This document shows, piece after piece, positions 2,186 through 31,972 of a stretch of DNA of 64,000 nt. The position numbers and the translations under genes were made by a program. Position 1 is the stretch's first letter; the number at the start of each line of letters is the position of its first letter. Below the pieces are notes generated by a model. The model did no database searches and had not been told where the DNA came from. It was given only the letters and a program-made list of their open reading frames with translations. The stretch is from Escherichia coli (lineage in GTDB: Bacteria > Pseudomonadota > Gammaproteobacteria > Enterobacterales > Enterobacteriaceae). The stretch lies in NCBI RefSeq assembly GCF_001677475.2, contig NZ_CP015229.1, one strand, 5' to 3'.

Positions 2186-3148
2186 TCACGCAGACTTCCT
2201 CAACCCCGCAAACGCCGCCCGAATCTCATCCTCCGGCAGCTGAATCCCGATAAACACCATCGTGCTATGCGGTTTTTCATCGCCCCACGGGCGGTCCCAG
2301 TCGGCGCTGTAGAGGCGCTGGACGCCCTGGAACAGCAGGCGGTTAGGTTCGCCGTCAATCCATAGCATCCCTTTGTAACGCAGCAGTTTATCCGCCGACT
2401 CCAGCAGCAGGTTTTCCATCACCCGGGAAACTTCGCTGATATCTACCGGGTAATCCAGTTCCACCACAATCGACGAAATATCGTTTTGTTTATCCGCGAT
2501 AAAGTGAAAACGTGGCTTGGTGCTGACGACGTTCTCTTCCAGCATAAAACCGTTGGTGTTGAACAGCAGGCCCAGGTCGATGTCGCCGTGGGTGACGGTG
2601 TAGACCGGTGCGCGGGCGTTGATGCGCGCCAGGCGTTCACGCAGTTTCTCTGCTTCGCCTGCGACGTCGGTTTTAGTCAGCAGAATACGGTCGGCGTAGC
2701 CAACCTGGGACTGGGCGATGGTGAACTGGTTCATCTGCTCATCGGCATGTACCGCATCCACCAGCGCAATCACGCCGTCCAGCAGGTAGCGCTGGCATAA
2801 AATCTCATGGGAGAAAAAGGTCTGAATAATCGGGCCGGGATCGGCCATGCCGGTGCATTCAATGACCAGACGGTCGAACTGAATATTGCCCTTGTCGAGA
2901 TTATCCAGCAGGTCGAGTAGCGCGTCTTCCAGCTCGTTGGAGCGCGAACAGCAGATGCAGCCGTTGGTCAGCGTTTTGATCTGCGTGGCGCGGTCGCCAA
3001 TCAGTTGATCATCAACGGAGACTTCGCCGAATTCGTTTTCAATCACGGCAATCTTGTAGCCGTGTTGTTCGTTAAGAATATGGCGCAACAGGGTGGTTTT
3101 GCCCGCGCCTAAAAAACCGGTGAGTAGGGTAACTGCAATCGGGTTCAT
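2186..3148 (-). CDS. yjiA: GTP-binding protein YjiA (CobW/P-loop GTPase family)
   Basis: ORF track 2186..3232; start set at internal Met giving MNPIAVTLLTGFLGAGKTTLL (Walker A), 318 aa as recalled for YjiA. Confidence 0.9.
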   Translation of the reverse strand: MNPIAVTLLTGFLGAGKTTLLRHILNEQHGYKIAVIENEFGEVSVDDQLIGDRATQIKTLTNGCICCSRSNELEDALLDLLDNLDKGNIQFDRLVIECTGMADPGPIIQTFFSHEILCQRYLLDGVIALVDAVHADEQMNQFTIAQSQVGYADRILLTKTDVAGEAEKLRERLARINARAPVYTVTHGDIDLGLLFNTNGFMLEENVVSTKPRFHFIADKQNDISSIVVELDYPVDISEVSRVMENLLLESADKLLRYKGMLWIDGEPNRLLFQGVQRLYSADWDRPWGDEKPHSTMVFIGIQLPEDEIRAAFAGLRKSA

Positions 3149-3158
3149 GCTCTCTCCA

Positions 3159-3362
3159 TTAACAACAGCGCATACCGCCTTTACCATCGCCGCCGTAGCG
3201 CGCGTTCTGGCGTTCGCGGAAGAATTCTTCATAGCTCATGTACGGCTTGTCGGGATGGTTGGTCTTCATATGCTCGACGTAGTTGTCGTAGTCTGGAATG
3301 CCAATCAACATCTTCGCCGCCTGGCCGAGATATTTTTTTGCCTGTCCTAAGTTACCAAACAT
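3159..3362 (-). CDS. yjiX: Small DUF466 protein YjiX (67 aa)
   Basis: ORF track 3159..3488; internal Met [17 protein letters not shown] matches YjiX as recalled; upstream part of ORF overlaps REP repeats. Confidence 0.8.
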
Positions 3363-3404
3363 TTTGCCTTCCAGATATGCGTAAAGCCCGGAAGGTCCGG
3401 GCTG

Positions 3405-3490
3405 GGGATTTGCCGGATGCGGCGTACACGCCTTATCCGGCCTACGATAGACACTTTGTAGGCCGGATACGCGCAGCGCATCCGGCAACC
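3405..3490. repeat. REP (repetitive extragenic palindrome) elements
   Basis: gccggatgcggcgtacacgccttatccggcctac and inverted copy gtaggccggatacgcgcagcgcatccggca. Confidence 0.8.
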
Positions 3491-3492
3491 GG

Positions 3493-5643
3493 TTAGTGGT
3501 GCGAAGAGATCTTCACGCCGCCTTCCGGGATTGGAACGTACGGCGTTTCTTTGTCAGTACGTTTGTCGCTGTTACGCACCTTCAGCCAGGTTTTGAAACC
3601 GTAGAAGATGATGCTGTACACCACAATCAGGAACAGAATACTCAGGCCTGCGTTGGTGTAGTTGTTCACAACGATGTGGTTCATGTTGGCAATCTGCTGC
3701 GCCGTCAGGTCAGTACCGTTAGCAATCTTCTCTTTGTACTGGCTTGCCATGTAGAAGAAGCCTTCCATCTGCGGGTTGGTGCTGAACAGTTTCAGACCCA
3801 GCGCCCAGGTGGTGCAGATAAGCAGCCATACCGCCGGAACAACAGTTACCCAGATGTATTGGGTGCGCTTCATCTTAATCAGCACAACGGTGCCCAGAAC
3901 CAGCGCTACGGCTGCCAGCATCTGGTTGGAGATACCGAACAGCGGCCACAGGCTCTTAACGCCGCCCAGCGGATCGACCACGCCCTGATACAGCAGGTAG
4001 CCCCACAGACCCACACAGCCCGCTGTACCGATGATACCGGCAACCAGAGAGTCGGTTTTTTTCAGGAACGGGATGAAGTTACCCAGCAGGTCTTGCAGCA
4101 TAAAGCGGCCAGAACGGGTACCGGCATCCAGCGCGGTCAGGATGAACAGGGCTTCGAACAGGATACCGAAGTGATACCAGAAGCCCATGTCAGCCATCGG
4201 CAGCACTTTGTGGAATACATGAGCGATACCTACCGCCAGCGTCGGCGCACCACCTGCACGGTTCAGGACAGAAGGCTCACCAATGTCTTTCGCGGTTTGC
4301 AGGATCTGCTCTGGCGAAATCACGAAGCCCCAGGAGCTGACAGTCGCCGCCGCGTGTGCGGTAACGTCTTTCAGCTGCGCCATGATGATTGGCGCGTTCT
4401 CGCCACCCATTTCATGCAGGTTAGGCATGGTGATGCCGAGGCCAGCAGGCGGGGTGTTCATCGCGAAGTAAAGACCCGGTTCGATGATGGACGCAGCAAC
4501 CAGCGCCATAATCGCCACGAAGGACTCCATCAGCATTGCGCCGTAGCCGATGAAACGCGCATCGGTTTCGTTAGCCAGCAGTTTCGGCGTCGTACCGGAA
4601 GAGATCAGCGCGTGGAAGCCAGATACCGCACCACAGGCGATGGTGATGAACAGGAACGGGAACAGAGCGCCTTTCCACAGCGGGCCAGTACCATCAATGT
4701 ACTGAGTCATCGCAGGCATTTTCAGTTCCGGGTTCAGCACCACGATACCCAGCGCCAGGCCGACGATAACGCCGATTTTCAGGAAGGTTGCCAGATAGTC
4801 GCGCGGTGCGAGGATCAGCCACACCGGCAGCAGTGCGGAAACAAACGCATAGCCAATCAGCGCGAAGGTAATGGTGGTGTCTTTAAAGGTCAGTGCCGGA
4901 CCCCAGTACGGATCGTGAGCAATCACGCCACCGAAGTAGATAGAGGCAACCAGCAGCACGATACCAATGACAGAGACTTCACCTACACGCCCCGGACGAA
5001 TAAAGCGCATGTAGATACCCATAAACAGCGCAATCGGTACGGTTGAGCAAACGGTGAAGACACCCCACGGACTTTCGGCCAGGGCTTTAACCACAATCAG
5101 CGCCAGGACGGCAAGGATGATGATCATGATTAAGAAACAGCCAAACAGCGCGATAGTCCCCGGTACTGGTCCCATCTCTTCTTTGATCATCTCACCGAGA
5201 GATGCGCCGTTACGGCGAGAGGAGATAAACAGCACCATAAAGTCCTGTACCGCACCGGCCAGCACTACCCCCGCCAGCAGCCACAGCGTGCCAGGCAGGT
5301 AGCCCATCTGCGCGGCGAGCACCGGACCAACCAGCGGACCGGCACCGGCGATAGCGGCGAAGTGGTGACCAAACAACACGTAACGGTTGGTCGGAACGTA
5401 GTTCAGACCGTCGTTGTTAATAACCGCAGGCGTCGCGCGCGTGGGGTCGAGTTTCATCACCTTCTGGGCGATGTACAGACTGTAGTAGCGATACGCCACC
5501 AGATACACCGACACAGAGGCGACCACGATCCACAGGGCGCTGACGTGCTCCCCCCGACGTAATGCAACTACCGCGAGGCAGAATGCACCGATGATTCCGA
5601 GAATCACCCAGGGTATGTGCTTGAATAGTTTTTTCGTATCCAT
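3493..5643 (-). CDS. btsT: Pyruvate/proton symporter BtsT (CstA family; YjiY)
   Basis: ORF track 3493..5658, 721 aa polytopic protein; start likely at [16 protein letters not shown]. Confidence 0.9.
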
Positions 5644-6035
5644 AGTAAAACCTGGCATTTTACTCGTCGTCTTTTGGCTTACAGGTGCGACAGCTGCATT
5701 TGTTCACCTCTGTCACTTACTGTTGTAAGCTCCCGGGGATTCACTCACTTGCTGCCTTCCTGCAAACCAAAATCCATTGAGTAATTTGTTAATCATAGGC
5801 CGAAGCCGTTCTAGGTTTGCGTTGCGTTTGAGGAGGTAAATTGACCGCTATCCTGCAGTGATGTTGCCAGAGTTACGCGCGCGTAAAGTAAGGTAAATAA
5901 CTGAGTGGTTATTTTAGGGACGTAAGCGGTCAGGAATGGCGGTGAGCGGTTGGGCAAGAATTATTCATCGGGTGGATATGTGATTGAGATCACAATAAAA
6001 ATGCCCCTTCGACGAATACGTGAAGGGGCTGGAGC

Positions 6036-6548
6036 TTAAATCGCAGCTTCCATTTCCAGCATCACCGGATGGAAACGGCGTTTAAAGTAGATAAGTCCGT
6101 GACCTTCTGCACTGAGGATGATGTTTTTAATCTCCACCAGATACACCAGATGTGTGCCAATTGCCTGCACATCGCGGATCTCACCTTCAAGACTGGCCAG
6201 CGAACCTTTCAGCACCGGCTGCGCCAGCGGACCTTTTTGCCAGCATGAGAGGCTAAAACGCTCTTCCATCGCCATGCCTGTCATGCCCGCGAAGTGGCGT
6301 GCCATCAGTTCCTGCTCATGGTTGAGGACGTTGACGCACAACTTGCCGTTGCCCTGAAAAACCGGGTTCATCGCACTGTTGGCGTTAATGCACACCATCA
6401 GCGACGGTGGTGTATCCGTGACCGAGCAGACAGCCGTTGCCGTAATCCCGCATTGTCCGGCGTCGCCCTCGGTGGTGATAATATTTACCGCTGCCGACAG
6501 GCTGGCCATCGCGTCACGAAAGCGCAGGCGTTGTTCATCTAATTGCAT
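6036..6548 (-). CDS. hpaC: 4-hydroxyphenylacetate 3-monooxygenase reductase component HpaC (flavin reductase)
   Basis: ORF track 6036..6566; MQLDEQRLRFRDAMASLSAAVNIITT... matches HpaC as recalled; immediately downstream of hpaB. Confidence 0.85.
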   Translation of the reverse strand: MQLDEQRLRFRDAMASLSAAVNIITTEGDAGQCGITATAVCSVTDTPPSLMVCINANSAMNPVFQGNGKLCVNVLNHEQELMARHFAGMTGMAMEERFSLSCWQKGPLAQPVLKGSLASLEGEIRDVQAIGTHLVYLVEIKNIILSAEGHGLIYFKRRFHPVMLEMEAAI

Positions 6549-6565
6549 CTTAACCTCCTGCTGCA

Positions 6566-8128
6566 TTATTTCAGCAGCTTATCCAGCATGTTGATATCGT
6601 CGTTGTTGTGCAGGTGCGGCACAGTCCAGCCGTTCTGGTCGTATTCCGACAGGCAGCGATCAACCATCGCCATCATCTTGTCCATATTGCCGGAGCTTTG
6701 TGCCTGGCGCAGACATTGCAGGCGAATCTCATCCTGGCTACCGGAGTAGTTGATTTCATACAGTTCGTGACGACCACCAAATTCGCTGCCAATGGCATCC
6801 CACATCAGTTTGAGGATCTTGATGCGCTGGACGTGATCCATACCATTCGAACCGCGCACATACTTCGCCAGATACTGGTCGATCTGCGGATTGTTCAGGT
6901 CACGGGCACTGGAAGGGAGATAGATCAGGCCACTGGTAACGTTGCGTTCGATAATGTTTTTGATCTTCGCGTAGGCCATTGGTGCCAGTACGCGATAGGT
7001 TTGCAGTGCGGCATGATCCGGTAAATAAGCCCCGTTGACCCACGGCGTCGCTTCAGAACACATCGAGTCACTCAATGCCCAGAAGGTGTTGCGCCACGCC
7101 ACCACTTCACCGAGATCGGCCTGCACACCACGGAACTCCAGGGTGCCGGTACATTCGAGTGATTTTTTCAGCAGTGCCGTAATGAAGTCTAATTTCACTG
7201 CCAGGCGCACACAGGCTTGCAGCGGATACATACGGGCAAAACCACCTTCCATTGTCCAGCGACGGCAGCGATCGAAATCGCGGTAGATCAGTACGTTTTC
7301 CCATGGGATCAGCACGTTATCCATCACCAGAATCGCATCGTTCTCATCAAAGCGGCTGGAGAGCGGGTAGTCGTACGGCGAGCCGGTAGCACCCGCGACC
7401 ATCTCATAAGAGGCGCGGGAGATTAATTTCACGCCATCGGCATCCATTGGCGCAACGAACATCAGTGCGAAGTCCGGGTTTTCGCCCATCACTTGTGCCG
7501 AGCCGAAGCCAATCATGTTGTAGTGAGTCAGCGCCGAGTTGGTGGCAACCACTTTCGCACCGCTGACGATAATCCCGGCGTCAGTCTCTTTTTCCAGCTT
7601 GATGTAAACGTCTTTCACTTTATCGGTCGGCAAATGACGATCGATCGGTGGGTTAACAATCGCGTGGTTAAAGTAGAGGCCAGTTTCCTGAATACGGGTG
7701 TACCAGTTACGGGCGTTCTGCTCGAACTGACCGTAAAAGCCCGGATTCGCGCCCAGTGCGCAACCGAAAGCAGCTTTGTAGTCTGGGGTACGGCCCATCC
7801 AGCCATAGCTCAGGCGTGACCACTCAGCGATGGCGTCGCGTTGCTGGCGCAGGTCGTCGGCACTTTTCGCCACGCGGAAGAATTTATGGGTATAGCCGCC
7901 GCTGCCGGTGTCGGTGTTCCAACACAGAGAGTCCTGCATCTCCGGTTTGTGTAGCGCGTCGTACAGTTGGGCAACAGACGCTGCCGCATTACGAAATGCC
8001 GGATGAGTGGTGACGTCTTTCACTCGCTCGCCGTAGATATAGATCTCGCGACCATCCTGCAGGCTTTTCAGATACTCTTCCCCGGTGAACGGACGTTGGG
8101 TACTGGCGCGGAAATCTTCTGGTTTCAT
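6566..8128 (-). CDS. hpaB: 4-hydroxyphenylacetate 3-monooxygenase oxygenase component HpaB
   Basis: ORF track, 520 aa, MKPEDFRASTQRPFTGEEYLKSLQDGREIYIYGERV. Confidence 0.9.
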   Translation of the reverse strand: MKPEDFRASTQRPFTGEEYLKSLQDGREIYIYGERVKDVTTHPAFRNAAASVAQLYDALHKPEMQDSLCWNTDTGSGGYTHKFFRVAKSADDLRQQRDAIAEWSRLSYGWMGRTPDYKAAFGCALGANPGFYGQFEQNARNWYTRIQETGLYFNHAIVNPPIDRHLPTDKVKDVYIKLEKETDAGIIVSGAKVVATNSALTHYNMIGFGSAQVMGENPDFALMFVAPMDADGVKLISRASYEMVAGATGSPYDYPLSSRFDENDAILVMDNVLIPWENVLIYRDFDRCRRWTMEGGFARMYPLQACVRLAVKLDFITALLKKSLECTGTLEFRGVQADLGEVVAWRNTFWALSDSMCSEATPWVNGAYLPDHAALQTYRVLAPMAYAKIKNIIERNVTSGLIYLPSSARDLNNPQIDQYLAKYVRGSNGMDHVQRIKILKLMWDAIGSEFGGRHELYEINYSGSQDEIRLQCLRQAQSSGNMDKMMAMVDRCLSEYDQNGWTVPHLHNNDDINMLDKLLK

Positions 8129-8378
8129 GTCGACCTCTACAGTATTAATCGGAATACGATTGTTAATTTTGTGTGTTGTTTTTGTTATTCAATTGAAGCT
8201 TGCAGAGGCGATTACGGGAAGACACTTTTGGGACAATGGCTGGTACTTTTCAGGTCGGGTACGGTTTTGTGATCGAGGTCGCTTTTAGCAATTTTTGACG
8301 TTACTAAATCCCCTTGCTCCAGGCGGAGAAAGGGGAATAGCAGGTGGTGCCTGGTTTCCCGTTAAGGCTAAGGGATTT

Positions 8379-9269
8379 TCACGTCACAGGTACTTTTTTG
8401 GCACGATAAGCACTGGGCGAGCAACCGACTAAGCGATTAAAAAAGCGGGCAAAATAAGCCGGATCTTTAAAACCGAGTTGCCAGGCAATATTGTTCACGG
8501 CGTTATCAGAAAACAGCAGCAGCCGCTTGGCTTCTCGCAGCTGCCTGTCGAAAATCAACCGTTTTGGCGGACGGTTGGCAAAGCGGCGGCAGATGTCGGT
8601 GAGGCGTGATTCGGTGATATGCAGTTCGTTAGCGTAATCCGGTACTGTCCAGTGCTGATGAAAATGGCTTTCAATCAGCATATTAAAACGCTGGAACAGT
8701 TTTAATTCTCCGCGCATTCCGCTGGCGGCATGGTCGTCGAGTTTTGCGTTACGCAGCAGTAGGGTGAACACTGCCTGTGCCAGTAACGTCAGGGTGTGTT
8801 CCCGTCCAGGCAGTTGTTCCACCGATTCCCGCTCTATCAGTTGCCAATAGTGTTCCAGCGCCGCCAGTTCGTCGGGTTTATCTGCCAGTGACAGGCAAAT
8901 CCCCGGGAGGCCGAAGGTTTCCCGAGTGCCCGGATAAAGAACTTCCAGCAGGGGCCAGATCAGATCTTCCCGTACCGTCAATACATGACCGTCGGCGTCA
9001 GACTCCGTAATAAACGCATGAGGTACTGACGGCGGCGTCAGGACAAACAGGGGCGCTTCCACCGAGTAACGATGATCGTCAAGCTGTAGCTCAATCTGTC
9101 CGCTATTGAGGAAATGCATCTGAAAGTACTGTTCGTGGCGATGTGGCAGCATATGGCGGCCAAAAAATGCCGCCATGCGGGCGAACGACTGATAATGCAC
9201 ATCGTCCGTGCCCAGGCTTTCATCGTACTCTTTGCTGATATCAATATTGGCAATCTGAGGGTCACACAT
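8379..9269 (-). CDS. hpaA: AraC/XylS-family transcriptional activator HpaA
   Basis: ORF track 296 aa; C-terminal AraC-type HTH; position between hpaX and hpaBC. Confidence 0.8.
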   Translation of the reverse strand: MCDPQIANIDISKEYDESLGTDDVHYQSFARMAAFFGRHMLPHRHEQYFQMHFLNSGQIELQLDDHRYSVEAPLFVLTPPSVPHAFITESDADGHVLTVREDLIWPLLEVLYPGTRETFGLPGICLSLADKPDELAALEHYWQLIERESVEQLPGREHTLTLLAQAVFTLLLRNAKLDDHAASGMRGELKLFQRFNMLIESHFHQHWTVPDYANELHITESRLTDICRRFANRPPKRLIFDRQLREAKRLLLFSDNAVNNIAWQLGFKDPAYFARFFNRLVGCSPSAYRAKKVPVT

Positions 9270-9278
9270 CGTCGTTCC

Positions 9279-10655
9279 TTACGGGGTCGCTCGCGGACGG
9301 GAGGACTGCATTGGAATCGCCCAGATAATCCCCGCACCAATCACCAGCAGCGCGGCAACAAACCACAATCCACTGTTAAAGCTGCCGGTCAGATCTTTCA
9401 ACCAGCCGATCATAAACGGACTTAACGCTGAACCAATGTTGCCAGTGGCGTTGATCACCGCAATACCGATCGCTCGTGCCCGCAGGCTGATGGATTGATC
9501 CGGTGTTGTCCAGAAAATCGCCATTGCGCTGAATGATCCGGTCGAAGCCATAATGATCCCCAGCATCTGGATCATGTTGTGATCAGTTGCCGAAGCCAGT
9601 AACCAACCAGCGGCAGCGAACAAATAAGGAAGGGCGGTGTGATGCCTTCGTTCCTGGCGGCGATCTGAGTGACGGCTCCAGTAGATCATCCCGAGAATGG
9701 TACAAATCTGCGGTACGGCGGCCAGCAGGCCGATGGTGATATTACTGCTGCCCTGATTAAAACTTTGCAGGATCTGCGGTGTCCAGATGCTGATCGCACT
9801 AAGTGTGTTGGTCAGGCAGAAATACGCCAGGGTATACATCATCACCACCGGAGTGAAGATCTCCCGCCACATACTGCGTTGTTGCATGGCGTGGTGGCTG
9901 ATGGCTCCCTCTGGCTGAACCAGCTTCAGACGATCGTTATCCATCATCTCTTGCAGGCATTTTTTGTCTTCTTTCGTCAGCCACTTAGCTTTGTCCGGTG
10001 AGTCATCAAGCCAGAACCACACCATGACGCCGAGTAATACCGACGGGAAGCCTTCCAGCAAAAACAGCCACTGCCAGCCTTTTAATGCCATTACACCATC
10101 CAGCGACAAAATGTAGCCGGAAACGATCGAGCCCAACGCTGTCGTTACCGGCATTGCTACCATAAACAAGGCGTTGGCACGGGCGCGGAAGTAGGCCGGA
10201 AACCAGAAGGTTAAATAGAGCAGAATGCCAGGCAGAAAGCCGGCTTCGGTAATGCCAACCAGTATACGCAGTACGTATAAGCTGGTGGGGCCAGTGGCAA
10301 ACATGGTAGCAGTAGAGGCGATGCCCCAAAGCACCATGATGGTGGCGATCCAGCGCCGCGCACCGACAATACTCAGCATAATGTTGCTGGGAATGCCGAA
10401 GATGACATAAGCGGCATAGAACAGGGTGGTAGCTAGGCCAAACATGGTGGCGCTCAGACCGAGATCGCGTCCCATCGTTAGTCCGGCAAAGCCGATGTTG
10501 ATGCGATCAAGGAACGAGAAGATAAACAGCACGAACAGAAAGACGATCAGGCGGCGAAATAGCTTCTTAATAACCGCCTGTTGTCCGGCAGTCAGCGCTT
10601 TATGCTGATTCGCCGGATCGATACTCTCCGGTATGGCAGGTGAGGTGTCGCTCAT
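9279..10655 (-). CDS. hpaX: 4-hydroxyphenylacetate MFS transporter HpaX
   Basis: ORF track 9279..10715; start set at MSDTSPAIPES; 12-TM MFS-like composition. Confidence 0.8.
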   Translation of the reverse strand: MSDTSPAIPESIDPANQHKALTAGQQAVIKKLFRRLIVFLFVLFIFSFLDRINIGFAGLTMGRDLGLSATMFGLATTLFYAAYVIFGIPSNIMLSIVGARRWIATIMVLWGIASTATMFATGPTSLYVLRILVGITEAGFLPGILLYLTFWFPAYFRARANALFMVAMPVTTALGSIVSGYILSLDGVMALKGWQWLFLLEGFPSVLLGVMVWFWLDDSPDKAKWLTKEDKKCLQEMMDNDRLKLVQPEGAISHHAMQQRSMWREIFTPVVMMYTLAYFCLTNTLSAISIWTPQILQSFNQGSSNITIGLLAAVPQICTILGMIYWSRHSDRRQERRHHTALPYLFAAAGWLLASATDHNMIQMLGIIMASTGSFSAMAIFWTTPDQSISLRARAIGIAVINATGNIGSALSPFMIGWLKDLTGSFNSGLWFVAALLVIGAGIIWAIPMQSSRPRATP

Positions 10656-10699
10656 TTTTCTTCCTCTAATGGGATTTTTGTAGGGTACGACAAGGTTTA

Positions 10700-10829
<130 letters not shown>

Positions 10830-11618
10830 TTAATACACGCCGGGCTTCACGGCGGTGGCCTGCGCACCAAACCGTGCTGCCAGCGCTTCGGCGGCGCGGG
10901 CGAGCAGGGTGGTGTCAACGCCGACGGCGACAAACAGCGCGCCCAGTTCCAGATAGCGTTTTGCCAGTTGCTCATTGGCGATCAGGATCCCCGGTGCTTT
11001 GCCCGCTTCGCGGATCTGCACGATCGCCTGCTCAATAGCGGCCTGTACTTCCGGGTGCTGCGGATTACCGGCATAACCCATATCGGCGCTCAGATCCGCC
11101 GGGCCGATAAACACGCCGTCTACTCCTTCCACGTCCAGAATCTGCGGTAAGTTCTTCATTGCCTCACGCGTTTCGATCTGCACCAGCACGCACATTTGAT
11201 CGTTGGCTTTTTGTAGGTAATCAGGAATACGATTCCAGCGCGAGGCGCGGGCCAGCGCACTGCCCACACCGCGAATACCGGCGGGGGGATAACGGGTGGC
11301 GCGTACCGCTTCACGGGCTTCGTCGGCGTTTTGTACCATCGGCACCAGTAAGGTTTGTGTGCCGACGTCCAGCAGTTGTTTGATTTGCACCGGATCGTTC
11401 CACGACGGACGCACTACCGGCTGGCTGGGGTAGGGCGCAATCGCCTGTAGCTGGGTGAGCACGGTTTGCACGTTATTCGGCGCGTGCTCACCGTCGATCA
11501 ACAACCAGTCGAATCCTGCTCCGGCCAGTAACTCTGCGCTGTAGCTGCTACTCAGCCCCAGCCATAATCCGATCTGCGGGCGGCCTGCTTTCAGCGCCGC
11601 TTTAAAACTGTTTTCCAT
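10830..11618 (-). CDS. hpaI: 2,4-dihydroxyhept-2-ene-1,7-dioate aldolase HpaI
   Basis: ORF track 10830..11759; internal Met [19 protein letters not shown] gives 262 aa class II aldolase-like protein. Confidence 0.85.
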
Positions 11619-11628
11619 CGTTCTCTCC

Positions 11629-12432
11629 TTAAACAAAGCGGCAGCTAATGGAACCCATGTTGCCGTAATCGACGTGGAAGGTGTCCCCCTTACGCGCCGG
11701 AACCGGGCGGGTGAACGAACCGCCGAGAATGATTTGCCCGGCTTCCAGTTGCACGTCATACGGTGCGAGTTTGTTCGCCAGCCAGGCCACGCCGTTTGCC
11801 GGATGATTCAGCACACCAGCGGCGACGCCGGTTTCTTCAATCACGCCATTGCGATACATCAGGGCGGAGATCCAACGTAGATCCAACTCATCGGGCTTAA
11901 TGGGACGACCTCCGAGAATCACCCCGGCATTGGCGGCGTTATCGGAAATGGTGTCGAATACTTTGCGCGGGCGCTGGGTTTCCGGATCGATGTTGTGGCA
12001 GCGAGCGTCGATCAGCTCCAGCGCCGGGATCACGTAGTCCGTGGCGTTGTAAACGTCGAACAGCGTGCAGTTTGGCCCACGCAGCGGTTTTGCCAGCACA
12101 AAAGCCAGCTCCACTTCAATGCGCGGCACGATGAAGCGATCGGTCGGGATATCGCTGCCATCGTGGAAGAACATGTCATCCAGCAGGGCACCGTAATCCG
12201 GTTCGCTGATTTGTGAGCTGGCCTGCATCGCTTTCGAGGTCAGGCCGATTTTGTGGCCTTTCAGCGTGCGGCCTTCGGCAATTTTCAGGCGTACCCATTC
12301 GCGCTGTACGGCGTAGGCGTCTTCGATGGTGATCTCCGGGTAATCCAGCGAGATCGCGCGGATCTGTTCGCGCTGTTTTTCTGCCTGATCCAGACGCTGG
12401 GCGATCAGTGTGTAGGTGTGTTTGTCGAACAT
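11629..12432 (-). CDS. hpaH: 2-oxo-hept-3-ene-1,7-dioate hydratase HpaH
   Basis: ORF track 11629..12498; start set at [19 protein letters not shown], 267 aa. Confidence 0.85.
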
Positions 12433-12500
12433 AGCGATATCCTGTGGCATTGCCGGATGGCGGCTGCGCCTTATCATCCGGCCTGGAAGCTGGTGCAAAT

Positions 12501-12881
12501 TTATTTAAACAACGCGTGTACGTTGTTCTGTTTGAAATTCAACGTCGGGTGCAGCTCTGCAATCTCAAATGAAAGCGCCAGGTAACGGCTCTCCATCAGT
12601 GAGGCGAAGTGCGTTTTAATCAGATCAAACAGCATTTCGCCCACTTCCTGACGGCTTTCCAGACTGCGTCCGCTGCCGATTTTTAGTGTCATATGCACAA
12701 AGGCGTAATCGTGCTTGCCATCAGCCATTTGCCAGGTATCGATCCAGTGCGCCCGGCTACGTATTCCCCCAAGCGGAAAAATCCCCGTCGCCGCCAGTGC
12801 AGTGTTAACACTGGCAAACAGCTCAGGTAAGCGGGCTTCTTGACGAATATTTTCAGTACATTCCACGATAAAGTGCGGCAT
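12501..12881 (-). CDS. hpaF: 5-carboxymethyl-2-hydroxymuconate isomerase HpaF
   Basis: ORF track, 126 aa, [22 protein letters not shown]. Confidence 0.85.
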
Positions 12882-12890
12882 GGTGGTTCC

Positions 12891-13742
12891 TTACGCGGGC
12901 AGCGGGAAAACAGCGTTAACCTGACCGGTGCCAGAGCTTGGGAACAGCTCGGTGATAAACTCCACCTTGCCGTCGTATTTATCCCAGCCGAGCATCCCCA
13001 GCAGCATCACCGTGTCGTGCATATTGCCTTCGCCGTAGCAGTAGTCGGCGTACTCCGGCAGCATATTGCAGAACTCTTTGAACTGGCCTTCGCGCCACAG
13101 CTTCACCACGCGCTCGTCCATCTGGCGGTCGAACTCGCGGGTGTAGCTGTTCATCCCTTCTTCTGCACGCTGATCGTCAATAAAGCGGTGCGATAACGAA
13201 CCGCTGGCAAGGACCGCCACGGTACCGTCGTACTGTTCGATCGCTTTCAGAATCGCTTCGCCCAGCTTGCGGCTGTCGGCAAAATCGTGAACCGTGCAGA
13301 AAGCCGAAATGGAAACCACTTTGAAGTGCTTGTCTTCATTCATGTAGCGCATTGGCACCAGCGTGCCGTATTCCAGTTTCAGGCTGGGAATGTTGTGCGC
13401 TTTCGCCCGCACGCCGAGCTTTAAGGCTTCATCGGCAATTAGCTGCCCCAACTCCGGGTTGCCCTCGTAGTTGTAGGTCATGTCACGAATAAAATGCGGC
13501 AGCTCGTTACTGGTGTAGACGCCTTCAAAATGGTCTGCACAGTTGATGTGATAAGCACTGTTGACCAGCCAGTGGGTATCGAAAACGATAATGGTATCGA
13601 CGCCCATTTCCCGGCAACGCTTGCTGATCTCTTTATGCCCGTCGATCGCGCCCTGGCGGCAACCGTGGTTTTTCCCTGGCAGTTCAGAGAGATACATCGA
13701 CGGTACGTGCGTGATCTTGGCGGCTAACGCTAACTTACCCAT
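12891..13742 (-). CDS. hpaD: 3,4-dihydroxyphenylacetate 2,3-dioxygenase HpaD
   Basis: ORF track, 283 aa extradiol dioxygenase-like; position in hpa operon. Confidence 0.85.
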   Translation of the reverse strand: MGKLALAAKITHVPSMYLSELPGKNHGCRQGAIDGHKEISKRCREMGVDTIIVFDTHWLVNSAYHINCADHFEGVYTSNELPHFIRDMTYNYEGNPELGQLIADEALKLGVRAKAHNIPSLKLEYGTLVPMRYMNEDKHFKVVSISAFCTVHDFADSRKLGEAILKAIEQYDGTVAVLASGSLSHRFIDDQRAEEGMNSYTREFDRQMDERVVKLWREGQFKEFCNMLPEYADYCYGEGNMHDTVMLLGMLGWDKYDGKVEFITELFPSSGTGQVNAVFPLPA

Positions 13743-13743
13743 A

Positions 13744-15210
13744 TCAGACTCCCCATTTCGGAATTGGATGGTCGCCCATGGAAATGCAGACGTTCTTCAT
13801 TTCCGCGAACACTTCGAAGCTGTACTCACCGCCTTCACGCCCGGTGCCGGAGGCTTTTACGCCGCCAAACGGCTGGCGCAGGTCGCGCACGTTCTGGGTG
13901 TTGACGAACACCATGCCTGCTTCAATGCCACGCGCCAGGCGTAACACTTTGCTGACATCCTGTGTCCAGATGTACGACGCGAGGCCGTACTCCACGTCGT
14001 TTGCCAGGCGCAGACCTGCGGCTTCGTCTTTAAACGGCAGCAGGCAGGCGACCGGCCCGAAAATCTCTTCCTGGGCGACGCGCATACGGTTATCAACGTC
14101 TGCCAGCACCGTTGGGCGCAGGAAGTTACCGCCTTTCAGGTGCGCAGGCAGGTCGGACGGTTTATCCGGACCGCCCGCCAGCAGGGTTGCGCCTTCTTCA
14201 ATGCCGAGACGGATATAGCCGGAGACTTTTTCCCAGTGTTGCTGGCTGATAAGCGCCCCAACCTGGGTATTCGGATCGTTCGGATCGCCCACGCGCAGAC
14301 GGTTGGCGCGTTCGGCAAAGCGTTTAACGAATTCTGGATAGATGCTCTGTTGAATAAAGATGCGCGAACCGGCGGTGCAGCGTTCGCCGTTGATTGAGAA
14401 GATGGTGAACAGGGCGGCGTCCAGCGCGCGCTCAATATCGGCATCTTCAAAAATCAGCACCGGCGATTTTCCGCCCAGTTCCATGGAGTATTTTTTCAGC
14501 CCGGCGTTTTTCATGATGTTGCGCCCGGTGGCGGTACCGCCGGTGAACGACACGGCACGCACGTCATGATGACGGACCAGCGCATCGCCTGCGGTTGCGC
14601 CGTAGCCCTGTACCACGTTCAGCACGCCCGCCGGAATACCGGCTTCCAGCGCCAGCTCACCCAGGCGGTCAGCGGTCAGCGGGGAGAGTTCTGACATTTT
14701 CAGTACCGCGGTATTGCCCAGCGCCAGACACGGCGCGACTTTCCAGGTGGCGGTCATAAACGGCACGTTCCACGGCGACACCAGTGCACAAACGCCTACC
14801 GGCTGCACCAGCGTGTAGTTGAGCATCTTGTCGTCGACCGGATAAGTCTTGCCGTTCATCTGCTGGCAGACTTCCGCGAAAAATTCAAAGTTGTGGGAAG
14901 CGCGTGGGATCAACACATTTTTGGTCTGATGGATTGGCAGGCCCGTGTCAGCGGTTTCCATCGCGGCGATCTCAGGCACGTTCTGGTCGATCAGATCGCC
15001 CAGACGGCGCATCAGGCGCGCACGCTCTTTCATCGGCAGATTGGCCCATTTCGGGAACGCCTCTTTCGCTGCCGCTACCGCCTGATTGATCTCCGCTTCA
15101 CCGCCGGAGGCCACATCCGCCAGCACCTCACCGGTTGCTGGATTGGTGGTCTGGAAATAGTCGTTACCTGCAACATTTTTGCCGTTGATCCAATGATTTA
15201 CTTTTTTCAT
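13744..15210 (-). CDS. hpaE: 5-carboxymethyl-2-hydroxymuconate semialdehyde dehydrogenase HpaE
   Basis: ORF track, 488 aa aldehyde dehydrogenase family. Confidence 0.85.
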   Translation of the reverse strand: MKKVNHWINGKNVAGNDYFQTTNPATGEVLADVASGGEAEINQAVAAAKEAFPKWANLPMKERARLMRRLGDLIDQNVPEIAAMETADTGLPIHQTKNVLIPRASHNFEFFAEVCQQMNGKTYPVDDKMLNYTLVQPVGVCALVSPWNVPFMTATWKVAPCLALGNTAVLKMSELSPLTADRLGELALEAGIPAGVLNVVQGYGATAGDALVRHHDVRAVSFTGGTATGRNIMKNAGLKKYSMELGGKSPVLIFEDADIERALDAALFTIFSINGERCTAGSRIFIQQSIYPEFVKRFAERANRLRVGDPNDPNTQVGALISQQHWEKVSGYIRLGIEEGATLLAGGPDKPSDLPAHLKGGNFLRPTVLADVDNRMRVAQEEIFGPVACLLPFKDEAAGLRLANDVEYGLASYIWTQDVSKVLRLARGIEAGMVFVNTQNVRDLRQPFGGVKASGTGREGGEYSFEVFAEMKNVCISMGDHPIPKWGV

Positions 15211-16496
15211 TTCGCTGTATCCTCACTCACAATTCGGTTCACCAGGTGGCCCACGCCTTCTACTTCCACCACTACTTCATCGCCAGGCACCACGTCAGAT
15301 AAGCCTTTTGGTGTGCCGGTGGCGATCATGTCGCCCGGATTCAGGGTCATAAATTCGCTTAAGTAGGCGATCAGGAAGGGCACGCTGAAGATCAGATCGG
15401 CGGTGGTGCCTTGCTGGCGTAACTCGCCGTTGACGAAGGTGCGAAGGGTCAGATTATGCGGGTCCGGGATCGCCTCTTTCGGCACGATGGTTGAAAGCAT
15501 CGGCGTCAGTCCGTCGCGGCTTTTTACCCGCAGGTTAGGGCGGTAGTAGTTTTCCAGATAGTCGCGAATGGCGTAGTCGTTACACACGGTGTAGCCCGCG
15601 ACATAATCCATGGCATCGGCTTCACTGACGTTACGCGCCTGCTTGCCAATAACTACCACCAGCTCCGCTTCGTAGTGCATGTATTCAATCTTGTTCGGGC
15701 GCACGGAGGTCTGGTTATCGCCAGTGAGGGTATTCGACGCTTTCAGGAACACCAGCGGCTCTTCCGGTGGCTTAAATTCCAGTTCGCTGGCGTGGTCGGC
15801 GTAGTTCAGGCCGAGGGCAAACAGCGTACCGTGCGGGTGTGGCAGCGTTGGGAAGCTCTTGCGCGTGGTCACTTCACGTTCGTCCACTACCGGATTTTCC
15901 AGCGGCGGGAAACCTTCTGCGAGAACACGAACGCGATCGCCTGGCTGTATTTCCACGCGCGCCTGTGGCGTGCCGAGCAGAATGGCATCGCCTGGATTCA
16001 GCGTGGCAAATTCGCTCAGGGCGCTCAGCAGCTGTGCGGCGTTACGTTGTAAATCGGCGGTGTTCCAGTGATCGGCAGGACGCCCGTTGATCTCGGTATA
16101 GATGGTCAGATTATCGACATTGCTGAGAGCCACGGTTTCGCCAATGGGGCAGAATCCATCACGACATTTTGCTTTGATTGCCGGGCGGTAAAAGCTCTCT
16201 TCCGGCAGGCTGACGTCGTTAGCCAGCGCATATCCGGCGATGTACTCTGCCGCATCTTCTTCACGTACTTTCGTCGCCGTTTTCCCCACAATCAGCGCAA
16301 CAGTCGCACCGCTCAGTACCTTTTCACCCTGTGGAAAGGGAATCGGTTCACCGCAACCAATCACCGTATTGCGCGGTTTAATAAACCAGACCGCAGTTTT
16401 AGGCGGGGCTTTGTAGGGGGATTTCTGGAACGCTTCCTGCCATGCATCAAGTTGGCTGCGATGGTTCAACGCTACGGCGAAGATAGTGCCTTTCAT
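15207..16496 (-). CDS. hpaG: Bifunctional 4-hydroxyphenylacetate degradation isomerase/decarboxylase HpaG
   Basis: ORF track 15207..16502 (GTG); ATG two codons in gives MKGTIFAVALNHRSQLDAW, 429 aa, duplicated FAH-like halves. Confidence 0.85.
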   Translation of the reverse strand: MKGTIFAVALNHRSQLDAWQEAFQKSPYKAPPKTAVWFIKPRNTVIGCGEPIPFPQGEKVLSGATVALIVGKTATKVREEDAAEYIAGYALANDVSLPEESFYRPAIKAKCRDGFCPIGETVALSNVDNLTIYTEINGRPADHWNTADLQRNAAQLLSALSEFATLNPGDAILLGTPQARVEIQPGDRVRVLAEGFPPLENPVVDEREVTTRKSFPTLPHPHGTLFALGLNYADHASELEFKPPEEPLVFLKASNTLTGDNQTSVRPNKIEYMHYEAELVVVIGKQARNVSEADAMDYVAGYTVCNDYAIRDYLENYYRPNLRVKSRDGLTPMLSTIVPKEAIPDPHNLTLRTFVNGELRQQGTTADLIFSVPFLIAYLSEFMTLNPGDMIATGTPKGLSDVVPGDEVVVEVEGVGHLVNRIVSEDTAK

Positions 16497-16521
16497 TACC
16501 ACTCCTCGGATTCGATCATCT

Positions 16522-16545
16522 TAATCATTAATATATTAATGATTA
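16522..16545. promoter_or_regulatory. Perfect 24-bp palindrome in hpaG/hpaR divergent promoter region; candidate HpaR operator
   Basis: taatcattaatatattaatgatta is its own reverse complement; lies ~25 bp upstream of hpaG start. Confidence 0.5.
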
Positions 16546-16767
16546 CTTTTATTCCCGATTGCGTAGTTTGGCAAAAGTAAGTGATGTAAATGTGATCTAA
16601 TTAACAAACTATTTACATTTAAAGATAATAAAATATTAAATATCAGCAAGTTAACAAAACATGCTCAATTTTGATAAAATGAAGAATTGCAGGGGCAGCG
16701 CAGTCCCGGTAACGTGATGATTAACTGTTTCTATATTAATGATTTTGAATTTTTCAGGGGAAAGATA

Positions 16768-17214
16768 ATGCACGACTCTCTAACCATTGCGTTGCTCCAG
16801 GCGCGAGAAGCGGCGATGAGTTATTTTCGCCCAATCGTTAAACGGCATAATTTGACTGAGCAACAGTGGCGCATCGTGCGTATTCTGGCGGAAAGCCCAT
16901 CAATGGATTTTCACGATCTGGCGTATCGCGCCTGCATTTTGCGCCCAAGCCTGACCGGGATCCTCACGCGGATGGAACGCGACGGTTTAGTGTTGCGATT
17001 AAAGCCGATCAATGATCAGCGGAAGCTCTATATCTCGCTGACCAAAGAGGGGCAGGCGCTGTATAACCGCGCTCAGACACAGATTGAAGAAGCCTATCGG
17101 CAGATTGAAGCTCAGTTTACTGCTGAGAAAATGCAACAGTTAACCCATCTGTTAGAGGAATTTATTGCTCTGGGTAATTCCCGACAAGAAGACATCCCGG
17201 GCGATAATGAATAA
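16768..17214 (+). CDS. hpaR: MarR-family repressor of the hpa meta-cleavage operon HpaR
   Basis: ORF track 16687..17214; ATG at 16768 preceded by AGGGGAAAG RBS; MHDSLTIALLQAREAAMSYFRP, 148 aa winged-helix protein divergent from hpaG. Confidence 0.8.
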   Translation: MHDSLTIALLQAREAAMSYFRPIVKRHNLTEQQWRIVRILAESPSMDFHDLAYRACILRPSLTGILTRMERDGLVLRLKPINDQRKLYISLTKEGQALYNRAQTQIEEAYRQIEAQFTAEKMQQLTHLLEEFIALGNSRQEDIPGDNE

Positions 17215-17332
17215 CTTTTTAGTATCTGATAACCAGCGTCTGGTTTTTCCATGGATGGCGGGTTACACCTTTTCATAAAGTTTTTGCTTTCCAGGCCGAA
17301 AATCTTGCATCGGTCCACAGGAAAGAGAAACC

Positions 17333-18997
17333 ATGTTAAAACGTATCAAAATTGTGACCAGCTTACTGCTGGTTTTGGCCGTTTTTGGCCTTTTACAACT
17401 GACATCAGGCGGTCTGTTCTTTAATGCCTTAAAGAATGACAAAGAAAATTTCACTGTTTTACAAACCATTCGCCAGCAGCAATCCACGCTGAATGGCAGC
17501 TGGGTCGCGTTGTTGCAGACGCGTAACACCCTCAACCGCGCGGGTATCCGCTACATGATGGATCAGAATAATATTGGTAGCGGTTCAACCGTTGCTGAGC
17601 TGATGCAGAGTGCCAGTACTTCGCTGAAACAGGCGGAAAAAAACTGGGCGGATTACGAAGCGTTGCCGCGTGACCCGCGTCAGAGCACCGCCGCAGCGGC
17701 AGAGATCAAACGTAATTACGATATTTATCACAATGCGCTGGCGGAGCTGATCCAACTATTAGGTGCAGGCAAAATCAACGAGTTCTTTGATCAGCCGACT
17801 CAGGGATATCAGGACGGTTTCGAGAAGCAGTATGTGGCTTACATGGAGCAAAACGATCGGCTCTATGATATTGCCGTCAGCGATAACAATGCCTCCTACA
17901 GCCAGGCGATGTGGATTCTGGTGGGCGTGATGGTCGTCGTACTGGCGGTCATCTTCGCCGTCTGGTTCGGTATTAAAGCCTCGTTGGTAGCGCCAATGAA
18001 TCGCCTGATTGACAGCATTCGTCATATTGCAGGCGGCGATCTGGTGAAACCGATTGAGGTGGATGGCTCTAATGAGATGGGGCAACTGGCAGAGAGTTTG
18101 CGCCATATGCAGGGAGAGCTGATGCGTACCGTCGGTGATGTGCGCAACGGGGCCAATGCCATCTATAGCGGTGCCAGCGAAATAGCTACCGGCAATAACG
18201 ATCTCTCTTCGCGCACCGAGCAACAGGCCGCTTCGCTGGAAGAGACGGCAGCCAGCATGGAGCAACTGACCGCAACGGTGAAGCAGAACGCCGAAAATGC
18301 GCGCCAGGCCAGCCACCTGGCGTTAAGTGCTTCCGAAACGGCGCAACGCGGTGGCAAAGTGGTGGATAACGTGGTGCAGACTATGCGCGATATCTCCACC
18401 AGTTCGCAGAAAATCGCCGATATTATCAGCGTAATTGACGGCATTGCCTTCCAGACCAATATTCTGGCTTTGAACGCGGCGGTTGAGGCTGCGCGTGCTG
18501 GTGAGCAAGGACGCGGTTTTGCGGTGGTCGCGGGAGAAGTGCGTAATTTAGCCCAGCGTAGCGCTCAGGCGGCTCGTGAAATTAAAAGCCTGATTGAAGA
18601 CTCGGTGGGGAAAGTAGATGTTGGCTCTACGCTGGTCGAAAGCGCTGGGGAAACAATGGCGGAGATTGTCAGCGCCGTGACCCGCGTGACGGACATTATG
18701 GGCGAAATTGCTTCTGCTTCTGATGAGCAGAGCCGTGGTATCGATCAGGTTGGCTTAGCGGTTGCTGAGATGGACCGGGTAACTCAACAGAACGCCGCGC
18801 TGGTGGAAGAATCTGCCGCCGCCGCCGCCGCGCTGGAAGAGCAGGCCAGTCGCCTGACCGAAGCAGTGGCAGTGTTCCGGATTCAGCAACAGCAGCAACA
18901 GCATCGTGAAACATCGGCTGTGGTAAAAACCGTGACGCCAGCTACGCCGCGTAAAATGGCCGTGGCAGATAGCGAGGAGAACTGGGAAACATTTTAA
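17333..18997 (+). CDS. tsr: Methyl-accepting chemotaxis protein I (serine chemoreceptor) Tsr
   Basis: ORF track 554 aa; [40 protein letters not shown]..., HAMP and MCP signalling domain, C-terminal NWETF. Confidence 0.95.
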
Positions 18998-19010
18998 TCG
19001 TCATAAAAAT

Positions 19011-19036
19011 GCCCGATAAGCAAAATGTTATCGGGC
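19011..19036 (-). terminator. Hairpin terminator between convergent tsr and lgoT
   Basis: gcccgataa/ttatcgggc stem, A-run upstream and T-run on minus strand. Confidence 0.5.
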
Positions 19037-19045
19037 ATAGGGAGA

Positions 19046-20407
19046 TTAATCTTTCCGTGGGTCGTTGATCGGCTGACGAACCAGGAAGATGTACGCCAGT
19101 GCCCCCGCTGCGGTGACGCAACCGCAGATGATTAGTGCCAGACGGAATGAGTGGGTGGTATCAACAATAAAACCAGTAATGATCGGCGCGAAAGAGGCGC
19201 AGATGAAGCTGGCAAAGTTCTGGATACTGCCCACCGACGCAGTCATGCGAGAAGCAACTGCGACGTGGATCAATCCCCAGCAGGATGTTCCTGCAAAGTG
19301 AATACAGAACAGTGCCATACCAATCAGCAGAACCGCTGTCATAGATGTTGTCGCTTGCGGTACGACCAGCGTAAAGGCGGCAGAACAGAACATCCCGGCA
19401 ATAATGCAGATCTTACGGCTTTTAATCGGAGCCATTCCCCCTTTGACCAGCCAGTCAGTAACGTAACCGTTGACCAGCATCCCGGCAGCCCCAAACAGGA
19501 AAGGGATAGCCGCCATCAACCCTGTGCTTTTTAAATCCAGGTTATAGGCTGTTTGCAGGTAACCAGGAAGCCAGGCCAGGTACAGCCACGCAGTGTAGTT
19601 GATGCCACTGAATCCGAGCATCATTCCCCACATTGTGCGGTTACGGAACAGGCTGCGCCATTCGGCAAAACTGAGCGGATCTCGGCGGGCATTGACACTA
19701 CCAGCATTGAGGTAAGCTTGTTCAACGGCAGTCAGTTCTACGTGCTCGCGGTTGCGATAGAGCATATACCAGCCAATGGCGAGAAAAATCCCCAGCACAC
19801 CAATGGTAATAAACATCCCACGCCAGCCCATCACCAGCATCATCGCCGCCAGAATCGGTGGGCTTACGGCAACGCCAATGGTAGAAGCTGCGTTGAAGAA
19901 GCCCATCGGGCGTCCGCGCTCTTTGATGTTGAACCAGTCATTAATGACTTTTACACCACATGGGTTCATCGGCGCTTCACCAATTCCCATACCGATACGC
20001 ACCAACACGAACTGCGTAAAGCTGTGCACCATGCCAGACATTGCCTGGAACAGTGACCAGAAGAACATCCCAAGTCCCAGCATCAGGCGCGGGCCTTTAC
20101 GATCCAATAGTGGGCCGCAAGGAAGTTGCGCAATCCCGTAAGCGAGTGAAAACACGGAGAGCAAAGCGCCGATTTCGGTGGCACTTAATCCCAATTCTTC
20201 ACGAATCGTTAAATTTGCTACCGACAGCGAACTGCGGTCGAGATAATTGATTACCGCCGCAAAAAATAATAACAACATGGCGGTGGTTTGAATGCGTTTA
20301 ATTCGGGTACTGCGTTGAACTAATCCATCTGGTGGCACGGGAATATCTGCCGACGAAGATGGAGTAAATGAAGAACGCGGATCGAGGGTGATATTTTCTT
20401 TTTCCAC
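19046..20407 (-). CDS. lgoT: L-galactonate MFS transporter LgoT (YjjL)
   Basis: ORF track 453 aa MFS protein; synteny tsr-yjjL-yjjM-yjjN. Confidence 0.85.
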   Translation of the reverse strand: MEKENITLDPRSSFTPSSSADIPVPPDGLVQRSTRIKRIQTTAMLLLFFAAVINYLDRSSLSVANLTIREELGLSATEIGALLSVFSLAYGIAQLPCGPLLDRKGPRLMLGLGMFFWSLFQAMSGMVHSFTQFVLVRIGMGIGEAPMNPCGVKVINDWFNIKERGRPMGFFNAASTIGVAVSPPILAAMMLVMGWRGMFITIGVLGIFLAIGWYMLYRNREHVELTAVEQAYLNAGSVNARRDPLSFAEWRSLFRNRTMWGMMLGFSGINYTAWLYLAWLPGYLQTAYNLDLKSTGLMAAIPFLFGAAGMLVNGYVTDWLVKGGMAPIKSRKICIIAGMFCSAAFTLVVPQATTSMTAVLLIGMALFCIHFAGTSCWGLIHVAVASRMTASVGSIQNFASFICASFAPIITGFIVDTTHSFRLALIICGCVTAAGALAYIFLVRQPINDPRKD

Positions 20408-31764: not shown

Positions 31765-31851
31765 TGGTGCGAGGGGGGGGACTTGAACCCCCACGTCCGT
31801 AAGGACACTAACACCTGAAGCTAGCGCGTCTACCAATTCCGCCACCTTCGC
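31765..31851 (-). tRNA. leuV: tRNA-Leu (anticodon CAG)
   Basis: Reverse complement reads GCGAAGGTGGCGGAATTGGTAGACGCGCTAGCTTCAGGTGTTAGTGTCCTTACGGACGTGGGGGTTCAAGTCCCCCCCCTCGCACCA; encoded CCA. Confidence 0.95.
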
Positions 31852-31885
31852 ACAGTCATCTTACTTTTTTTGATATCGCCTCGTT

Positions 31886-31972
31886 TGGTGCGAGGGGGGG
31901 GACTTGAACCCCCACGTCCGTAAGAACACTAACACCTGAAGCTAGCGCGTCTACCAATTCCGCCACCTTCGC
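31886..31972 (-). tRNA. leuP: tRNA-Leu (anticodon CAG), one-base variant in variable arm
   Basis: Same 87-nt tRNA with aagaacac instead of aaggacac on plus strand. Confidence 0.95.

Follow-up and report, generated by a model that had tools for sequence, protein, structure and literature searches.

Does the set of 4-hydroxyphenylacetate (4-HPA) catabolic genes that separates btsT from tsr in part of the Escherichia coli chromosomes represent an island inserted between two core genes, or is it an old resident of this locus? The question is raised by a stretch of 64,000 nucleotides from E. coli (assembly GCF_001677475.2, contig NZ_CP015229.1; hereafter, the window), in which a first reading made from the sequence alone had placed an inserted hpa island at positions 5644 to 17332. 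From the comparisons described below, we consider it very likely that the segment 5996-17271 is an intact and functional E. coli hpa cluster and an old occupant of the btsT-tsr spacer, not a mobile island.

Between the two core genes, 11 uninterrupted hpa open reading frames (ORFs) were found, ten on the minus strand and hpaR alone on the plus strand, with start codons trimmed to the annotation of collinear E. coli genomes. No frameshift or premature stop was found in any of them, and all 11 proteins match NCBIfam equivalog models from end to end, each above its curated cut-off. The two-component 4-HPA 3-monooxygenase is encoded by hpaC (6036-6548, minus; flavin reductase component; NF012030, 385.6 bits against a cut-off of 315) and hpaB (6566-8128, minus; oxygenase component; TIGR02310, 1109.6 bits, cut-off 885.2). 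Next to them are hpaA (8379-9269, minus), for an AraC/XylS-type activator of hpaBC (TIGR02297, 390.3 bits, cut-off 274.65), and hpaX (9279-10655, minus), for a 4-hydroxyphenylacetate permease of the major facilitator superfamily (TIGR02332, 892.4 bits, cut-off 615.4). The meta-cleavage set is complete and full length: hpaI (10830-11618, minus; 4-hydroxy-2-oxoheptanedioate aldolase; TIGR02311, 433.8 bits, cut-off 368.8), hpaH (11629-12432, minus; 2-oxo-hept-4-ene-1,7-dioate hydratase; TIGR02312, 465.2 bits, cut-off 351.5), hpaF (12501-12881, minus; 5-carboxymethyl-2-hydroxymuconate isomerase, C/B-type allele; NF011605, 263.5 bits, cut-off 215), hpaD (12891-13742, minus; homoprotocatechuate 2,3-dioxygenase; TIGR02298, 549.9 bits, cut-off 315.95), hpaE (13744-15210, minus; 5-carboxymethyl-2-hydroxymuconate semialdehyde dehydrogenase; TIGR02299, 737.3 bits, cut-off 638.35) and hpaG (15207-16496, minus; bifunctional isomerase/decarboxylase in the fused two-domain form; NF011750, 967.5 bits, cut-off 811). 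The divergent hpaR (16768-17214, plus) encodes a MarR-type repressor of the meta-cleavage operon (TIGR02337, 201.1 bits, cut-off 121.2).

This organisation, with hpaR divergent from hpaGEDFHI, followed by hpaXA and then hpaBC, is collinear with the annotations of E. coli W, BL21(DE3), C, AR_0019 and M114. A draft genome that was assembled independently (GCA_031341795.3) has the identical arrangement, differing by 1 base in 21,290 (99.995%), so the arrangement is not an assembly artefact. The defining enzymes, regulators, permease and organisation of the E. coli hpa cluster are all present, and the cluster is the ordinary, already known system of this species for 4-hydroxyphenylacetate catabolism.

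The closest references agree with this identification. E. coli W (GenBank Z37980, Prieto et al. 1996, as cited in PMC7180172 and PMC7201708) has the same 11 genes (hpaRGEDFHIXABC) in the same order and on the same strands, with the same btsT and tsr flanks. Over 5644-17332 the window is 98.2% identical to W from hpaC to hpaH and 96.5% from hpaF to hpaR, and the corresponding values for BL21(DE3) and C are 98.4% and 97.6%. In 10,374 coding nucleotides there are 252 differences from W, causing 31 amino-acid changes (20 of them in HpaF), and 205 differences from C, with 19 amino-acid changes. About 90% of the substitutions against both strains are synonymous, and this excess of silent changes indicates that the hpa genes are under strong purifying selection. 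HpaB, HpaC, HpaD and HpaR have the same amino-acid sequences as in W, as do HpaC and HpaR when compared with C.

The hpc/hpa genes of E. coli C and B (BL21(DE3) and REL606) are organised as in the window, and hpaF is 99.7% identical in C and BL21. On the other hand, W carries another hpaF allele, with 80% nucleotide identity and 20 amino-acid changes to that of the window, and its hpaH-hpaF spacer contains two repetitive extragenic palindromic (REP) elements instead of one. The divergent hpaF together with this distinct two-REP spacer points to a recombination block of approximately 500 bp within the cluster. The W allele (locus L094, 25452-25942, aligned to 12433-12881 of the window) shows the same 80% identity to C and BL21, and 92-93% to Pseudocitrobacter. 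The hpaX-hpaI spacer has 174 bp in the window, W and AR_0019, 123 bp in C and BL21, which have one REP unit fewer, and 117 bp in M114; judging from these spacers, REP copy number is polymorphic between E. coli strains. Tsr has 554 aa in the window and 551 aa in C and B. At the sequence level, the departures from the reference strains are small, consisting of a C/B-type hpaF, a W-like number of REPs between hpaX and hpaI, the 554-aa Tsr and a dispersed repeat of the enterobacterial repetitive intergenic consensus (ERIC) type in the btsT leader. Beyond yjiA, W has a penicillin G acylase gene while the window has a type I restriction system. With an hpaC-hpaB query, E. coli HB101 (NZ_CP178859.1), a hybrid of K-12 and B, gave a match restricted to positions 544-2093, which cover hpaB and not hpaC; this may be a junction of its B-derived hsd region.

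Much of the sequence-only reading was thus confirmed: the 11 genes in their order and strands are all intact ORFs above the equivalog cut-offs, the cluster is that of E. coli W, B and C (96.5-98.4% identity, with the same gene order), and REPs do lie inside it, three in the hpaX-hpaI spacer and one in the hpaH-hpaF spacer. Its statement that btsT and tsr are adjacent in K-12 is also right, since in MG1655 these genes (b4354 and b4355) are neighbors separated by a spacer of 377 bp. The extent that it gave was only partly correct. Positions 5644 and 17332 are the bases bordering the start codons of btsT and tsr, and the interval does span the cluster between both genes, but the true variable segment is shorter. 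When aligned to the K-12 spacer, the window is homologous from btsT through 5658, again over 5789-5949 and again from 17272; in the O157:H7 allele, the left homology reaches 5995 and the right one restarts at 17275. The segment that differs covers approximately 5996-17271 (11.3 kb); in its place, K-12 has an AT-rich filler of about 88 bp. The remainder of the interval is made of the btsT upstream region, the ERIC-type repeat and the tsr promoter.

The claim that found no support is that of an inserted island. We were not able to find mobility genes (integrase, transposase or conjugation genes) in the segment, which is 92% coding, all of it hpa, with a largest gap of 271 bp. There is no tRNA gene within 14 kb of the cluster, the nearest ones being at 31765-32087, and the two boundaries have no k-mer of at least 9 nt in common in either orientation. 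The GC content of the cluster (54.4%) is like that of the core genes around it (btsT, 56.3%; yjiA, 55.6%; tsr, 53.9%), and the GC content at third codon positions varies from 0.56 to 0.72 in the hpa genes and from 0.60 to 0.70 in the neighboring core genes. From five features that an acquired island could show, four were absent (mobility genes, tRNA or repeats, deviant composition and discordant divergence), leaving the sporadic distribution as the only one observed.

Other genera also argue for an old residence. A BtsT scan using one genome per GTDB species, with matching by window-specific peptide words, returned 80 loci, among which E. coli K-12, E. fergusonii, E. marmotae and E. ruysiae have no representatives. 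In 17 of the 80 loci, hpaE-D-F-H-I-X-A-B-C lies directly upstream of btsT in the order of the window: Citrobacter sp. NCU1 and R56, four Raoultella, three Klebsiella, Enterobacter asburiae and related Enterobacter, two Pseudocitrobacter, and Lelliottia. The order next to btsT in Enterobacter, Klebsiella, Raoultella, Citrobacter and Pseudocitrobacter is hpaR / hpaG-E-D-F-H-I-X-A-B-C, as in the window. Three of the 17 loci were extended. In Enterobacter asburiae the order is opgB...tsr-hpaR-hpaG...hpaC-btsT, placing the cluster between btsT and tsr; in Pseudocitrobacter, tsr is found 3 kb past hpaR, with extra genes in between; and in Klebsiella michiganensis unrelated genes, and not tsr, occur past hpaR. 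In the latter species (locus L084, 8611-10004) hpaG is split into ORFs of 210 and 254 aa, whereas in Escherichia, Enterobacter and Pseudocitrobacter it is a single fused gene for 429 aa.

The nucleotide identity between the window and those genera is 71-89% for the hpa genes and 81-88% for btsT and yjiA. Across 15 taxa, the pairwise distances of the hpa genes correlate with those of btsT (r = 0.67-0.87; 0.85 for the yjiA control), and the exceptions are local, being hpaX, the hpaE-I segment of Pseudocitrobacter and the W-type hpaF. Furthermore, Escherichia sp. MOD1-EC7003 retains a 113-bp remnant of the 3' end of hpaC beside btsT, with 95.3% identity, which is the level of its backbone. The shared locus and order, the divergence that follows btsT and the hpaC remnant indicate that the residence of the cluster at this locus predates the divergence of the genera. 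With regard to the exceptions, hpaX occurs in two allele classes across genera (L023, L024, L031, L039, L052, L066 and L088), whose amino-acid identity to the window is close to 90% in one and close to 70% in the other, and these classes do not follow the distances of the flanking genes. In Pseudocitrobacter (L046 and L086), hpaE, hpaD, hpaH and hpaI are 92-96% identical to the window, compared with 86-87% for btsT and 81-83% for hpaA, hpaX and hpaC, which suggests that part of the meta-cleavage operon was exchanged fairly recently between genera.

Within E. coli the cluster is indeed accessory, as had been proposed. Among the 5426 complete RefSeq genomes of the species, hpaBC is present in 2071, a K-12-type empty site in 2751, and a third cassette, that of O157:H7 and relatives, in 363; the remainder (about 241) has an unclassified spacer state. 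We suggest that this patchy distribution is most likely the result of loss and of allele replacement by homologous recombination through the btsT and tsr flanks, while a site-specific insertion into a K-12-like chromosome is unlikely. The opinion that K-12 lost an ancestral cluster is also expressed in PMC7201708. These data are most economically read as a conserved site of variation, with conserved flanks through which its cassettes are exchanged or lost.

The alternative states of the spacer illustrate this variability. The K-12 MG1655 empty site shares with the window the btsT upstream region, up to a CRP-like palindrome, and the tsr promoter, but it does not have the ERIC-type element. Its allele is found with 99.8% identity in ST131 and Nissle 1917 and with 96.7% in CFT073 and UTI89, values that hint at recombinational exchange between phylogroups. 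In the O157:H7 strain 3384 (locus L083, 14281-15056), a low-GC cassette of 776 bp, with a 180-aa orphan gene (WP_000934391.1), has the same junctions as hpa. A TRAP-transporter operon was found in MOD1-EC7003 (L003, 6305-9982) in place of the remaining hpa genes, tsr and lgoT, and proline-racemase-like and FAD-oxidoreductase genes occupy the btsT-tsr spot in Escherichia sp. E1V33 (L004, 5000-9650).

At least five different cargoes were seen at the btsT-tsr junctions, and we counted them, together with the identity values of the K-12 empty allele, toward a broader proposal, which we put forward with less than even confidence: the spacer between the CRP-site region of btsT and the sigma-28 promoter of tsr could be a conserved hotspot of cassette exchange across Enterobacteriaceae, in which the hpa and empty states would form a trans-species polymorphism older than the split between E. 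coli and E. albertii and shuffled by recombination in the flanks. E. albertii has a K-12-type site, with a filler homologue of 82% identity, and btsT and tsr are directly adjacent in Salmonella arizonae and diarizonae, many Citrobacter and Kosakonia; consequently, both spacer states are old.

These same observations weigh against an ancestral residence of the cluster, and there are others. The ancestral state of the spacer cannot be fixed from the sampled genomes, and a simple insertion or deletion does not convert one state into the other. In Smith-Waterman comparisons against shuffled sequences, only the CRP-like palindrome was found when we looked for traces of the K-12 filler in or beside the cluster, and a simple insertion or deletion between both states was rejected since neither flank of the cluster has anything that corresponds to the filler. 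Exchange between genera inside the cluster is evident from the Pseudocitrobacter hpaE-I segment, the hpaX allele classes and the W-type hpaF. In addition, hpa is reported to be missing from phylogroups B2 and G but carried by A, B1 and C (PMC12444784), a pattern that, on the species tree, could equally reflect a gain in the ancestor of A, B1 and C. An early gain within E. coli is, in our view, a minority possibility.

The main alternative is a horizontal acquisition, in which an accessory island would have entered the btsT-tsr spacer of an ancestor arranged like K-12. The presence of hpaBC in only 2071 of the 5426 complete genomes agrees with it, as do the reported absence of the genes from avian pathogenic E. 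coli of phylogroups B2 and G and their presence in A, B1 and C (PMC12444784), the K-12-type empty sites of E. albertii, Salmonella and many Citrobacter, and the foreign cassettes taken up at this spot in O157:H7, MOD1-EC7003 and E1V33. However, such an insertion should be considered improbable, given that no integrase, tRNA target or boundary repeat was found, that the base composition does not depart from that of the adjacent core genes, and that the cluster has the same position and order in six other genera, with a divergence matching that of the flanks. No donor closer than the 71-89% identity of these genera came to light, except for a partial match in Pseudocitrobacter. In a cryptic Escherichia lineage, what is left of hpaC has diverged to the same degree as the backbone, and the absence of the K-12 filler from both sides of the cluster speaks against a simple insertion.

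The second alternative, a decaying or silent cluster that would resemble the known one in annotation but have no catabolic function in the source strain, is extremely improbable: HpaG does differ at 5 residues from W and at 9 from C, but the 11 genes are uninterrupted, with full-length equivalog matches above cut-off, roughly nine in ten substitutions against W and C are silent, and conservation extends to the spacers, the terminator and the palindromes of the control region.

For the functional cluster, the mechanism would be the one described in E. coli W, as summarised in PMC7180172 and PMC7201708. HpaX would import 3- or 4-hydroxyphenylacetate, and HpaA, an AraC-type protein, would activate hpaBC, whose two-component flavin monooxygenase is expected to produce 3,4-dihydroxyphenylacetate (homoprotocatechuate). 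HpaR, of the MarR type, would repress hpaGEDFHI and its own gene until relieved by the product of HpaBC, and HpaD, E, F, G, H and I would then open the ring and convert homoprotocatechuate into pyruvate and succinic semialdehyde. Residue 379 of HpaB is Arg in the window, as in BL21(DE3), and Arg379 is the type that uses both 3HPA and 4HPA (PMC7201708). The sequence of the window is consistent with the W mechanism in its control-region palindromes, the 250-bp spacer between hpaA and hpaB and the strong terminator after hpaC.

The source strain is hence expected to use 3- and 4-hydroxyphenylacetate for growth, compounds formed in the gut when tyrosine and flavonoids are broken down, and this trait distinguishes many lineages of phylogroups A, B1 and C from K-12 and from B2 and G. 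The cluster also supplies the HpaBC hydroxylase, widely used in biotechnology. All of this was already known. The useful correction is an evolutionary one: instead of a mobile island, the locus would be a conserved site of variation, at which an old catabolic cluster has been retained, lost or exchanged.

Regarding the non-coding elements, the variable segment opens with the intrinsic terminator of hpaBC (5995-6029, minus), formed by a hairpin (6003-6029) and a U-tract. The RNA fold has -19.1 kcal/mol (z = -5.2) and is followed by UUUUUAUU. The hpaA-hpaB spacer (8129-8378, minus) is a non-coding gap of 250 bp and the putative region of the HpaA-activated hpaBC promoter, a role that comes from the E. 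coli W literature (PMC7180172). The divergent control region between hpaG and hpaR (16497-16767) has 271 bp and contains the near-perfect, TTAA-rich palindrome TTAATCATTAATATATTAATGATT (16521-16544) and a related copy (16721-16744) inside the hpaR leader, both in repeat family D9. Inverted repeats of TTAA are the reported type of HpaR site, with TTAA-N4-TTAA as the only type described in PMC7180172. Candidate sigma-70-like hexamers occur at 16651-16680 (plus) and 16654-16625 (minus), but they are not above chance across the region: when compared with shuffles, the scan gave 9 promoter-like matches against 8.7 expected and 12 terminator-like ones against 13.8. At the gathering threshold, no RNA family of Rfam was found in 3000-19500.

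The REP cluster 3' of hpaI, in the hpaX-hpaI spacer, comprises elements at 10701-10733 and 10752-10785 (both plus) and an inverted one at 10800-10828, which belong to direct-repeat family D3. A single REP-like element was recognised by inspection of the hpaH-hpaF spacer (12452-12486). The 14-nt core pattern of REPs has 9 matches in the window against 0.48 expected, and an inverted REP pair is also located outside the cluster, at 3432-3471, between yjiX and btsT.

The left core flank is btsT (yjiY; 3493-5643, minus), encoding a pyruvate/H+ symporter. The collinear region of E. coli AR_0019 carries the same annotation for it, and it is 98.4% identical to the btsT of K-12. Its best NCBIfam match is the CstA-type pyruvate/proton symporter (1012 bits), under the cut-off of that paralogue. 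The btsT upstream regulatory region (5789-5995, minus) is common to K-12 and other genera, with 93% identity to K-12 over 5789-5949 and 87% to O157:H7 through 5995, and ends in the CRP-like palindrome TGTGATTGAGATCACA (5979-5994), which local alignment places in the same register in K-12. Positions 1-228 of the K-12 spacer are kept in Citrobacter and Klebsiella irrespective of what lies downstream.

Between this region and the gene there is a dispersed repeat of the ERIC type, also named intergenic repeat unit (IRU), with 130 bp (5659-5788), located in the btsT leader, with 15 bp between it and the start codon, and outside the hpa cluster. It contains TTGTAAGCTCCCGGGGATTCAC, with 20 of 22 matches to the ERIC1R primer. 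The largest repeat near the left edge is accordingly of the ERIC type, being neither a REP nor part of the cluster. Repeats of this type occur in a median of 8 places per E. coli genome. The copy in the btsT leader is present in E. coli C, W, AR_0019 and M114, in E. albertii and in Escherichia sp. E1V33, and absent from K-12, O157:H7 and MOD1-EC7003.

On the right, the core flank is tsr (17333-18997, plus), for the serine chemoreceptor of 554 aa (NF011615, 1223.3 bits, cut-off 947). Its promoter and leader (17272-17332, plus) include TAAAGTTT (17276-17283) and, after an 11-nt spacer, GCCGAAAA (17295-17302), which we regard as a sigma-28-type promoter on the basis of the consensus of this factor. 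The variable segment ends 4 bp short of its -35 element, and this promoter region is conserved 5' of tsr in many genera. In E. albertii NBRC 107761 (L005, 9156-9503), tsr has an apparent large internal deletion, since only the promoter and start and the last 144 bp, approximately, can be aligned.

As for the rest of the window, the best match of the backbone (1-35000) among the complete genomes has 98.2-98.8% identity and, at this level, the lineage of the window is not represented among them. Because of this low identity, Shigella was considered as the source, but it was rejected: no insertion sequence (IS) elements were found in the window backbone, tsr is intact, and the draft GCA_031341795.3 matches at 99.995%. 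A prophage at approximately 35200-64000, with integrase, terminase, the Rha regulator and other genes, is inserted beside yjjG/prfC. Over 24.9 kb, it is 100.0% identical to a prophage of E. coli M114, from the mountain pygmy possum, while the backbones of both strains differ by about 1.8%.

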